DNA of 64,000 nt. Origin: Frankiaceae bacterium (GTDB taxonomy: Bacteria; Actinomycetota; Actinomycetes; Mycobacteriales; SCTD01). The stretch covers positions 8,076 through 72,075 of the forward strand of contig JAENVS010000017.1 of NCBI GenBank assembly GCA_016650445.1, read 5' to 3'. Under the pieces are notes generated by a model. It had not been told where the DNA came from. It was given only the letters and a program-made list of their open reading frames with translations, and ran no database searches. The position numbers and the translations under genes are program-made. How positions within the stretch are numbered: the first letter of the stretch is position 1; each line of letters starts with the position of its first letter. This document shows positions 12,718 through 13,839 of the stretch, piece after piece.

Positions 12718-13839
12718 ATGCTGCTGAGCGACCGGGACCTCAAGGCCGCCCTCGCCGAGGGGCGGATGGGCCTGGACCCGTACGACGAGGCCATGGTCCA
12801 GCCGTCGAGCGTCGACGTCCGCCTGGACCGCTACTTCCGAGTCTTCGCGAACCACCGCTACACGCACATCGACCCGGCCGTCGCACAGGACGACCTGACC
12901 GAGCTGCTCGAGCCCGAGGGCGAGGAGCCGTTCATCCTGCACCCGGGGGAGTTCGTCCTCGGCTCGACGCTCGAGGTCATCTCCCTCGGCCACGACCTCG
13001 CCGCGCGCCTAGAAGGCAAGGCCCTCGCCCTCGACACGGAGGTCCCGACCCCGTGGGGCTGGACGACGATGGAGCACCTCGAGGTCGGGGACGAGGTCTT
13101 CGACGAGACGGGTTCGCCGACCACCATCGTCGCTGCGACCGAGGTGATGACCGACCGGCCCTGCTACGAGGTGCTCCTGTCGGACGGCAGCCGGTTCGTC
13201 GCCGATGGGAAGCACCTCTGGGTTACCAAGACCAAGGGTGAGCGCGCCCGCGGCTTGCCCGCGCAGTCTCGAACCACGGATCAGCTGGCGGCCACGCTGC
13301 GCGCCGGCCGTGAGTGGAACCACCACATCCAGATCGCCGCCGACGTGCCCGCGGACGTCGCCGCCGGAGCTGCTGCACTCGGTGGCGCACGCCGTGCGGG
13401 GACGGCCACGCTCGTGAGGACTCCTCCTGAAGCCGGCCGCCGGCTGCTGTCGCGGGAGGTCGTCGCGGTGCGGCCGAGCTCGTCGGTGCCGGTGCGGTGC
13501 ATTCAGGTGGCGGCACCGAGCGGGATGTTCCTCATCGGGCGCACTTTCGTGCCGACGCACAACAGCTCGCTCGGGCGGCTTGGGTTGCTCACGCACTCGA
13601 CCGCCGGCTTCATCGATCCCGGGTTTTCGGGACACGTGACGCTCGAGCTGTCCAACGTCGCGAACCTGCCGATCAAGCTCTACCCGGGCATGAAGATCGG
13701 GCAGATCTGCGTGCTGCAGCTGACGTCGCCCTCAGAGCACCCCTACGGCTCGTCCATCTACGGCTCGCGCTACCAGGACCAGCGCGGCCCGACCCCGTCG
13801 CGGTCCTACCTCCGCTTCAGCCGCACCCCGACCCAGTAG
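12718..13839 (+). CDS. dcd: dCTP deaminase precursor, interrupted in frame by a mini-intein
   Basis: Residues 1-101 ([15 protein letters not shown]...ARLEGK) plus residues 283-373 ([29 protein letters not shown]...) make a normal 192-aa Dcd. The 181 aa between them have intein blocks. Confidence 0.9.
   Translation: [373 protein letters not shown]
13021..13563 (+). mobile_element. 181-aa mini-intein with class 3 (WCT) hallmarks, no homing-endonuclease domain
   Basis: Block A is ALALDTEV (Ala1). Block B is [14 protein letters not shown] (His B:10, Trp B:12; TGG at 13219-21). Block F is PVRCIQV (Cys F:4; TGC at 13498-500). Block G is FVPTHN followed by Ser+1 (Thr G:5, His G:6, Asn G:7). Confidence 0.8.

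Follow-up and report, generated by a model that had tools for sequence, protein, structure and literature searches.

A predicted class 3 mini-intein in the nucleotide-binding loop of an actinobacterial dCTP deaminase

This report concerns the dcd gene, encoding dCTP deaminase (Dcd), in a 64,000-nucleotide (nt) stretch of DNA from a Frankiaceae bacterium (GenBank assembly GCA_016650445.1, contig JAENVS010000017.1, positions 8,076 to 72,075 of the forward strand), hereafter called the window. At 12718–13839 on the plus strand, an intact open reading frame (ORF) of 373 codons, with an ATG start and a TAG stop, encodes the precursor of a Dcd of the bifunctional type, from a high-GC actinomycete, whose insert is, judged by its sequence, a mini-intein of the rare class 3. 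We consider it roughly 85% probable that this is a functional class 3 mini-intein from which the homing endonuclease has been deleted, and that it belongs to a Dcd-hosted clade that is sister to the inteins found at the P-loop of the helicase DnaB. An initial annotation of the window, made from the DNA and its translated reading frames, had proposed an intein of this class at this position, and its claims are taken up below together with the results that bear on them.

The case for an insertion starts from the host enzyme. Both the Pfam family DCD (PF22769) and the NCBIfam equivalog TIGR02274 (dCTP deaminase) match the precursor in two pieces that abut at profile positions 100/101, and the gap between the two pieces corresponds to precursor residues 102–282, or nt 13021–13563. 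Removal of these residues leaves a 192-residue product, in which TIGR02274 positions 2–179 match in one stretch with 208 bits (against 187 bits in two pieces), and which aligns over residues 1–189 with Mycobacterium tuberculosis Dcd:dUTPase (PDB 2QXX) with zero gaps and the same numbering. The junction therefore lies exactly between Lys101 and Ser102, and this exact restoration upholds the proposal of a 373-residue ORF that reverts to a 192-residue Dcd once an insert at K↓SS (the arrow marking a junction) is taken out of the nucleotide-binding loop. By alignment with E. coli Dcd (PDB 1XS1), Lys101, Ser102, Arg106 and Glu129 are equivalent to Arg110, Ser111, Arg115 and Glu138, the last three of which we take to be deamination residues of the E. 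coli enzyme. The Lys101–Ser102 loop is uninterrupted in the solved Dcd structures compared (2QXX and 1XS1). GC content is even along the ORF, at about 0.67–0.73, and the frame is continuous; because GC is uniform here, there is no compositional island at dcd. The parts of the gene are as follows, with codon positions checked for the individual residues and for the two splicing lobes.

12718 to 13839, plus strand: dcd precursor ORF, with its Pfam DCD and TIGR02274 matches split by the insert.
12718 to 13020, plus strand: N-extein, Dcd residues 1–101, ending ...ARLEGK, in which Lys−1 is K101 of the M. tuberculosis and R110 of the E. coli enzyme (2QXX and 1XS1 alignments).
13021 to 13563, plus strand: predicted class 3 mini-intein of 181 residues, precursor residues 102–282 (phmmer against 6RIX, 6RIY and 6BS8; structure prediction and Foldseek).
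13021 to 13233, plus strand: N-terminal splicing lobe with blocks A and B.
13021 to 13023, plus strand: Ala1 (GCC).
13162 to 13164, plus strand: Cys48.
13204 to 13206, plus strand: Asp62.
13213 to 13215, plus strand: His65 (block B position 10, B:10).
13219 to 13221, plus strand: Trp67 (B:12).
13234 to 13335, plus strand: conserved lead-in subdomain, intein residues 72–105, which precedes the endonuclease in full-length relatives (alignment with full-length Dcd and DnaB inteins).
13336 to 13452, plus strand: decayed Ala/Gly/Arg-rich linker, intein residues 106–144 (39 residues), the site of the loss of about 165 residues of LAGLIDADG endonuclease (alignment gap against loci L001 and L002).
13453 to 13563, plus strand: C-terminal splicing lobe with blocks F and G, SVPVRC...VPTHN being common to the solved class 3 inteins and to all 81 relatives.
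13498 to 13500, plus strand: Cys160 (F:4).
13555 to 13557, plus strand: Thr179 (G:5).
13558 to 13560, plus strand: His180.
13561 to 13563, plus strand: Asn181.
13564 to 13839, plus strand: C-extein, Dcd residues 102–192, starting with Ser+1 (13564–13566), which is S102 of the M. tuberculosis and Ser111 of the E. coli enzyme, followed by SLGRLG... (2QXX and 1XS1 alignments).

Searched with phmmer against the sequences of the PDB, the insert retrieves 6RIX, 6RIY and 6BS8, entries named 'replicative DNA helicase', with E values of 2e-27 to 8e-27; these are the class 3 DnaB-1 inteins of M. chimaera and M. smegmatis, solved by crystallography (PMC7664689, PMC6195587). The first 70 intein residues are about 65% identical to these DnaB-1 inteins (MchDnaB1 and DnaBi1 of M. 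smegmatis, Msm), the C-terminal SVPVRC(I/V)...(V/I)PTHN is kept, and all published DnaB-1 functional residues are present, at intein positions 1, 48, 62, 65, 67, 160, 179, 180, 181 and +1. In the same alignment blocks A, B, F and G coincide with those of the solved class 3 DnaB inteins, as initially assigned, and the residues then named (Ala102, Trp168, Cys261, Thr280, His281, Asn282 and, as +1, Ser283 of the precursor) are encoded where they had been placed. The Trp/Cys/Thr (WCT) triplet is Trp67/Cys160/Thr179, which by alignment equals Trp67/Cys118/Thr137 in Msm DnaBi1 and Trp67/Cys124/Thr143 in MchDnaB1, and block B reads Asp62-Gly-Lys-His65 (DxxH), with Asp and not Thr at B:7, as in DnaBi1-type members. 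Residue 1 is Ala, and so neither Cys, Ser nor Thr, in the window intein and in 81/81 relatives, as class 3 demands; His180-Asn181↓Ser+1 (nt 13558–13566) has its counterpart in the THN↓S of all 81, and the signature residues are found at the expected position in 80–81 of them, the one exception having block B shifted by one residue. This near-invariance, the homology and structural match to class 3 inteins of proven splicing, the exact restoration of Dcd and purifying selection on the splicing blocks all bear out the class 3 (Ala1/Trp-Cys-Thr) mini-intein assignment.

The predicted fold agrees. An AlphaFold2 (AF2) model built with 35 homologous fragments has a mean predicted local distance difference test score (pLDDT) of 84, with values above 88 over residues 1–100 and of about 85–94 over residues 141–170; the lead-in at residues 72–105 scores 88–95, the linker at about 106–144 scores 43–57, and only residues 120–135 fall below 50. 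The roughly 90 residues between blocks B and F had been described as low complexity throughout, which holds for residues 106–144 or so; residues 72–105 are conserved, modelled with high confidence and common to full-length relatives. Foldseek searches of the PDB with the model return both class 3 DnaB inteins on top (target-normalised template modelling score 0.82–0.88), followed by other inteins and Hedgehog HINT domains, and the 31 matches at E ≤ 0.001 are HINT-fold structures (inteins and Hedgehog autoprocessing domains). One result weighs against the identification: the insert alone matches no Hint or intein family at E ≤ 1 among the Pfam and NCBIfam TIGR intein models, and the only profile to respond, weakly (E 1e-3), is an rSAM 'exception' model, through its intein part. 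The initial annotation had named the absence of a Hint-domain signal in profile searches as a ground for giving up its claim, and taken formally that is the outcome here; because the PDB sequence and fold searches are unambiguous, we read the silence of these libraries as a gap in profile sensitivity for this clade rather than as counter-evidence. No second copy of the intein family was found by tblastn in the 64-kb window, and a 26%-identity match at 34307–34543, which straddles two unrelated ORFs, was dismissed as noise.

The best characterised relatives of the window intein are the mycobacterial DnaB-1/DnaBi1 inteins (M. smegmatis, 6BS8; M. chimaera, 6RIX/6RIY; M. leprae DnaB), which share with it the key residues, Lys−1 and the fold. 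The extein context of DnaBi1, G-K↓S-x-L-G, matches that of the window's Dcd; both are mini-inteins with a disordered linker where the endonuclease was lost, and Ser+1 has in each case a further function in the nucleotide-binding loop of the host. They differ in host, DnaB being a P-loop ATPase and Dcd a β-barrel enzyme of the dUTPase superfamily, and in length, the window linker being about 40 residues longer than that of Msm DnaBi1 (181 against 139 residues for the intein). Substitutions diagnostic of the Dcd clade relative to DnaB inteins include I in place of V following the F:4 Cys and, in block F, G/F in place of H/Y. The DnaBi1-type allele is defined by insertion at the DnaB Walker-A motif, ARPxxGK↓ST; with Dcd as host, RLEGK↓SS as site and a clade of its own, the window intein is best classed as a relative of the DnaBi1-type (DnaB P-loop, site b) allele and not as a member.

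Splicing of class 3 inteins has been demonstrated biochemically and structurally for Msm DnaB-1, M. leprae (Mle) DnaB and MchDnaB1 (PMC6195587, PMC5222942, PMC7664689), the branched thioester at block F has been demonstrated in class 3 homologues (PMC2807308, PMC5222942), and from these we infer how the window intein would work. The 373-residue precursor would be translated with its catalytic loop split between Lys101 and Ser102, and should therefore be inactive. Cys160 (F:4), assisted by His65, Asp62 and Thr179 and with Trp67 packing the core, would attack the Lys(−1)–Ala1 bond to give the block-F branched thioester, after which the N-extein would be transferred to the side chain of Ser+1, cyclisation of Asn181 would free the 181-residue intein, and an O-to-N shift would produce the native K101–S102 bond of the 192-residue Dcd. 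Ser+1 would have two roles in this scheme, as splicing nucleophile first and as Dcd active-site serine afterwards, reminiscent of Ser+1 of DnaBi1, which is the P-loop serine that later takes part in Mg2+ coordination (PMC6195587).

The same homologues invite a reading that goes further, namely that the splicing-competent intein is a conditional switch, in which, by analogy with DnaBi1, a Cys48–Cys160 disulfide or zinc would keep the precursor from splicing when oxidative or metal stress sets in, throttling the flux from dCTP to dUMP and with it the dCTP:dTTP ratio. We think this doubtful. Cys48 and the block-F Cys are conserved in 80–81 of the 81 relatives, and in Msm DnaBi1 the same pair forms a disulfide, induced by reactive oxygen species, that blocks splicing in vitro and in vivo, but Cys48 is needed there for splicing itself, so that its conservation needs no regulatory explanation (PMC6195587). 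Zinc and reactive chlorine are also reported to inhibit DnaBi1 (PMC7360933, PMC8557812). Gating would also have a physiological read-out, since loss of Dcd:dut in M. smegmatis raises dCTP more than 6-fold and halves dTTP, distorting the dCTP:dTTP ratio (PMC5519681); the sporadic distribution and horizontal spread of the intein, described next, suit a selfish element at least equally.

The window intein is one of many. A protein search with the insert gave 54 clusters, many with a DCD Pfam domain and some also with LAGLIDADG_3, and a genome scan covering one genome per GTDB species gave at least 564 intein relatives, of which the best 80 loci were analysed. Sorted by their flanks, 29 of these 80 (30 with the window) lie in Dcd, at the identical site RLEGK↓ALA, and 51 in the Walker-A motif of DnaB, in the context ARPxxGK↓ALA...PTHN↓S(T/V). 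The insertion site, which had been thought possibly new, was thus oversold: at least 29 further genomes, each representing a species, have the same class 3 insertion under no other annotation than 'dCTP deaminase', and precursors of 535 and 546 residues bear just this label in NCBI and IMG. In other words, dozens of public genomes from actinobacteria and Chloroflexota already contain the Dcd class 3 family, without its having been recognised.

The nearest Dcd hosts are Frankiales-like metagenome-assembled genomes (MAGs), with exteins 92–97% and splicing domains 77–87% identical to those of the window, and the closest relative among the loci analysed is L001, from the Actinomycetota MAG BP_342, which falls beside the Frankiales MAGs. 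Further hosts are Geodermatophilus maliterrae, Pseudonocardia charpentierae, MAGs of Pseudonocardiaceae, Streptosporangiaceae and Gaiellaceae, and seven Chloroflexota MAGs. Full-length Dcd inteins, of 343–350 residues and with both LAGLIDADG motifs, occupy the same insertion site in Frankiales-like, Geodermatophilus, Pseudonocardia, Streptosporangiaceae and Chloroflexia hosts (e.g., L001, MDX6198956.1, and L010, WP_438940612.1); the nearest of them are 84–87% identical to the window copy in the splicing domain and 96–97% in the exteins, and differ from it by the roughly 165 residues of endonuclease domain that the window copy lacks. Among the 29 Dcd loci, 17 inteins measure 343–350 residues, nine measure 276–320 and three are minis, the minis besides the window copy being L085/P0004 (from a metagenome), L008 (161 residues) and L080 (159 residues). 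The nine of intermediate length (L003, L004, L005, L009, L012, L013, L031, L038 and L044) carry partial endonuclease deletions with differing boundaries, L003 and L004 lacking the region between the two LAGLIDADG motifs. Taken with the minis, of which at least three are independent, they make up a graded series of decay at a single insertion site, running from inteins of about 345 residues with an intact endonuclease, through truncated forms of 276–320, to independent minis of 159–181 residues.

Within the Dcd clade, intein and extein divergence are only loosely correlated (Spearman rho 0.31). Chloroflexota and actinobacterial inteins are as similar to each other (mean identity 0.63) as actinobacterial inteins are among themselves (0.63), whereas for the exteins the corresponding values are 0.62 and 0.79. 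This mismatch across phyla argues for horizontal spread, with vertical descent among the near relatives of the window copy.

Dcd and DnaB copies form two groups, split by a single branch recovered in 191 of 200 bootstraps of a neighbor-joining tree of the splicing domain (115 alignment columns). Mean splicing-domain identity is 0.63 within Dcd, 0.70 within DnaB and 0.54 between the two, a pattern consistent with a single change of host and subsequent spread within each. The two extein contexts are alike, both being G-K↓S-(S/T)-L-G, and the likeness extends to the DNA: the consensus target sequences of Dcd and DnaB are identical at 14 of 18 positions within ±9 nt of the junction and at 17 of 24 within ±12 nt, a level that none of 16,000 random 24-mers from the same loci reached (6.9 ± 2.2 identical positions). 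Relatives outside these two hosts are found at similar places, those in GenBank phages residing in terminase, DnaB-like helicase and Cas4 genes and 75 of the 80 retained IMG/VR viral relatives at GK↓S/T Walker-A sites. Phage class 3 inteins of the terminase large subunit and of DnaB-like helicases share the ALA(L/I)DTP...PTHN↓S/T architecture at 35–50% identity; their hosts are P-loop or Cas4 phage proteins, whereas the host of the window intein is a cellular, non-P-loop enzyme. Since the superfamily is a P-loop specialist and Dcd, with its dUTPase-fold β-barrel, its odd host, parsimony favors a move from P-loop to Dcd by sequence mimicry. We infer that most likely the Dcd clade derives from a class 3 intein targeting Walker-A (GK↓S/T) sites that moved to the look-alike GK↓SSLG of Dcd. 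The 'extein switching' of class 3 phage inteins from terminase (TerL) to Cas4 through similar nucleotide-binding sites has been put forward (bioRxiv 10.1101/2025.01.02.630785), and this idea of host change between similar sites fits the DnaB/Dcd pair.

Three points tell against this account. The direction of the switch follows from site-type parsimony and not from the tree; rooting with four phage class 3 inteins gave Dcd monophyly in 77 of 200 bootstraps and an ambiguous root; and the target sites were compared on intein-occupied alleles, whose flanks may have been co-converted. A phage origin of the Dcd allele was considered and set aside, with 0 Dcd-hosted copies in GenBank phages or in the 80 retained IMG/VR loci. 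More doubtful still than the redox switch taken singly is its combination with this history, in which intein and endonuclease would have moved together from a P-loop to an extein of unrelated fold through the GK↓S(S/T)LG mimic, and Cys48–Cys160 would also act as a redox- or zinc-gated switch; one stress signal, acting after translation, would then restrain both the balancing of deoxynucleotide pools by Dcd and replication by DnaB in these actinomycetes.

Saccharomonospora phage PIS 136 (L166, JX006077.1, 77938–78519) carries an intein-free dcd whose product is 70.8% identical to the spliced Dcd of the window; its RLEGK-SSLGRLG target is intact and the gene adjoins HNH and VRR-NUC nucleases and an integrase. 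On a phage-borne dcd of this kind, phage class 3 inteins could come into contact with the Dcd target site. In Nocardia sp. NPDC049220, two contigs (L027 and L055) each have a class 3 mini-intein, of 146 and 147 residues, at the DnaB P-loop site, with different C-exteins, which suggests two invaded dnaB paralogues, one of them possibly from a prophage or plasmid.

The absence of a homing endonuclease, as first proposed, is confirmed by alignment: L001 and L002 carry both LAGLIDADG motifs, DPY.LG.WLGDGT and LLQGLMDSDGY, and the window copy, about 165 residues shorter, has neither. With this domain gone, the window intein is unable to home, and it would be the immobile, endonuclease-deleted descendant of a LAGLIDADG Dcd intein of about 345 residues, retained because imprecise loss would destroy Dcd. 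A search of the linker for endonuclease DNA remnants (blastn-short against eight full-length alleles) gave only chance-level matches of 9–24 nt, many of them out of frame; because no DNA remnant rises above chance, the resemblance of a linker segment at the protein level to VVELAASLGLRPVKRK is only suggestive. A homologous endonuclease occupies the corresponding position in full-length DnaB alleles, together with an extra Cys-rich insertion. In inteins of about 400 residues (L066, L072 and others) this insertion into the LAGLIDADG region comprises about 55 residues with at least four Cys in CxxC-like spacing (CPMCG...C..C...CPDCG...C..C); it is missing from the Dcd-hosted endonucleases and may be a zinc-ribbon DNA-binding module tied to target specificity.

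Selection was assessed from ratios of nonsynonymous to synonymous divergence (dN/dS, by the Nei–Gojobori method) of the window copy against L001, the nearest full-length allele, and against L085, an independent mini. Against L001, dN/dS is 0.09 in the N-lobe (dS ~0.7), 0.12 in the C-lobe (dS ~1.0) and 0.03–0.07 in the exteins (dS ~0.5), with 0.12–0.35 in the lead-in subdomain (residues 72–105). The comparison with L085 is the more telling because both alleles are already without endonuclease: amino acid identity and dN/dS are 33/35 and 0.065 in the C-lobe, 51/61 and 0.12 in block B with the lead-in, 13/38 and ~0.5 in the linker, and 89/91 and 0.06 in the C-extein. Splicing machinery and host enzyme have been kept by selection after loss of the endonuclease while the linker drifted, as expected if excision is still needed, and the window intein is very probably splicing-competent.

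What can be held against splicing competence is that the splicing reaction, its branched intermediate and the part played by Cys160 are all projected from homologues whose overall identity by structural alignment is 34–38% (about 65% over the N-lobe), and that Dcd:dut is dispensable in mycobacteria with an intact dut (PMC5519681), so that splicing would be under less stringent selection than in an essential gene, and an allele that had stopped splicing might survive for some time. This dispensability, with the lost endonuclease, the drifting linker, the missing Pfam intein match and the precedent of a class 3 intein pseudogene (PMC3196547), would suit a decayed, non-splicing remnant, dcd then being an effective pseudogene or yielding an inactive precursor, as has been reported of the class 3 intein in Arth_1007 of Arthrobacter FB24. 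We hold this to be improbable: the frame is open through 373 codons, every catalytic and signature residue is kept, and dN/dS values of 0.065–0.12 in the lobes and 0.03–0.07 in the exteins, at dS of about 0.4–1.0 and even between two endonuclease-less alleles, are unexpected for an inactive precursor or a dead intein. That the insert is instead a domain stably retained, without excision, in a Dcd subfamily, or that unrelated sequence has been fused to the gene by an error of assembly or annotation, can draw on the plain 'dCTP deaminase' label of the 535–546-residue homologues and is very improbable, as the insert parts Lys101 from the active-site Ser102 in a loop that is contiguous in solved Dcd structures, is homologous end to end to bona fide inteins with a terminal His-Asn↓Ser, recurs with fixed junctions but differing internal length in isolates and MAGs independent of one another, and leaves GC content and frame continuous.

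Dcd is not a new intein host, contrary to the initial suggestion, since an intein in the Dcd of cyanophage vB_AphaS-CL131 (gp069) has been published and splices on expression in E. coli (PMC6293099); two further Dcd inteins, one from a proteobacterium and one from a member of the Chloroflexi, are cited there (source MacGregor 2013). The CL131 intein lies in the same GKS...R nucleotide-binding loop as that of the window, but is a class 1 intein (Cys1...Asn↓Cys+1) of 351 residues with an HNH endonuclease, bears no sequence relationship to the window intein and is inserted after the Arg of GKSTYAR↓C, five residues downstream of the K↓S site. It ends in ...KN↓C. Together these features mark it as a class 1 intein that entered this loop independently. 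In gp069 (L168, 5325–6992), for which the intein is published as residues 133–483, the sequence reads ...GKSTYAR C↓FTGDTKV ... VFVKN↓CGII with the published N-boundary marked; it appears more likely that the intein starts at Cys132, as canonical Cys1, and the C-extein at Cys484, shifting the published N-boundary by one residue.

Our literature search found no paper on a class 3 intein in Dcd, although an earlier listing is possible (e.g., in InBase, or as the Chloroflexi case), and the Dcd allele enlarges the class 3 family related to DnaBi1 by a member that is new or, at the least, lacks description and annotation. Standard intein profiles miss the clade, and its precursors of 373–546 residues are recorded as 'dCTP deaminase', so that routine annotation and intein censuses alike overlook an intein allele of Actinomycetota and Chloroflexota. 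Where class 3 inteins have been characterised, the host is mostly a P-loop or phage protein; Dcd adds a cellular non-P-loop enzyme to these, and Dcd and DnaBi1 form a natural pair for studying how inteins and their endonucleases change host via look-alike nucleotide-binding sequences. Being compact and having native K(−1)/S(+1) junctions, such a class 3 mini-intein could also serve as a tool for protein engineering. All this extends current understanding without overturning it, and is mechanistically not new.

Within the window, dcd stands in ordinary chromosomal surroundings. A tRNA-Gly gene (anticodon CCC) lies at 12578–12651 on the minus strand, 66 nt upstream of the dcd start and opposite to it; no sign of its use as an integration site was seen, and composition is flat across the region. 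The neighbouring features are the following.

14391 to 16748, minus strand: Fe-S/CCG-domain reductase.
From about 17.3 kb: dnaK-grpE-dnaJ cluster.

At the latter, a 788-residue ORF at 17090–19456 (minus strand) matches Pfam PF10712, 'NAD-specific glutamate dehydrogenase', at E 3e-140, and runs antisense to a 618-residue ORF at 17291–19147 (plus strand) that is followed by a 208-residue ORF and a DnaJ gene (19872–21023). PF10712 is presumably a spurious family derived from the antisense strand of dnaK, and the real gene at 17291–19147 is most likely dnaK, on the plus strand, in a dnaK-grpE-dnaJ operon. Farther along, 44155–44323 (plus strand) matches the c-di-AMP riboswitch family RF00379 (ydaO/yuaA leader) with 52 bits, above the gathering score of 38.

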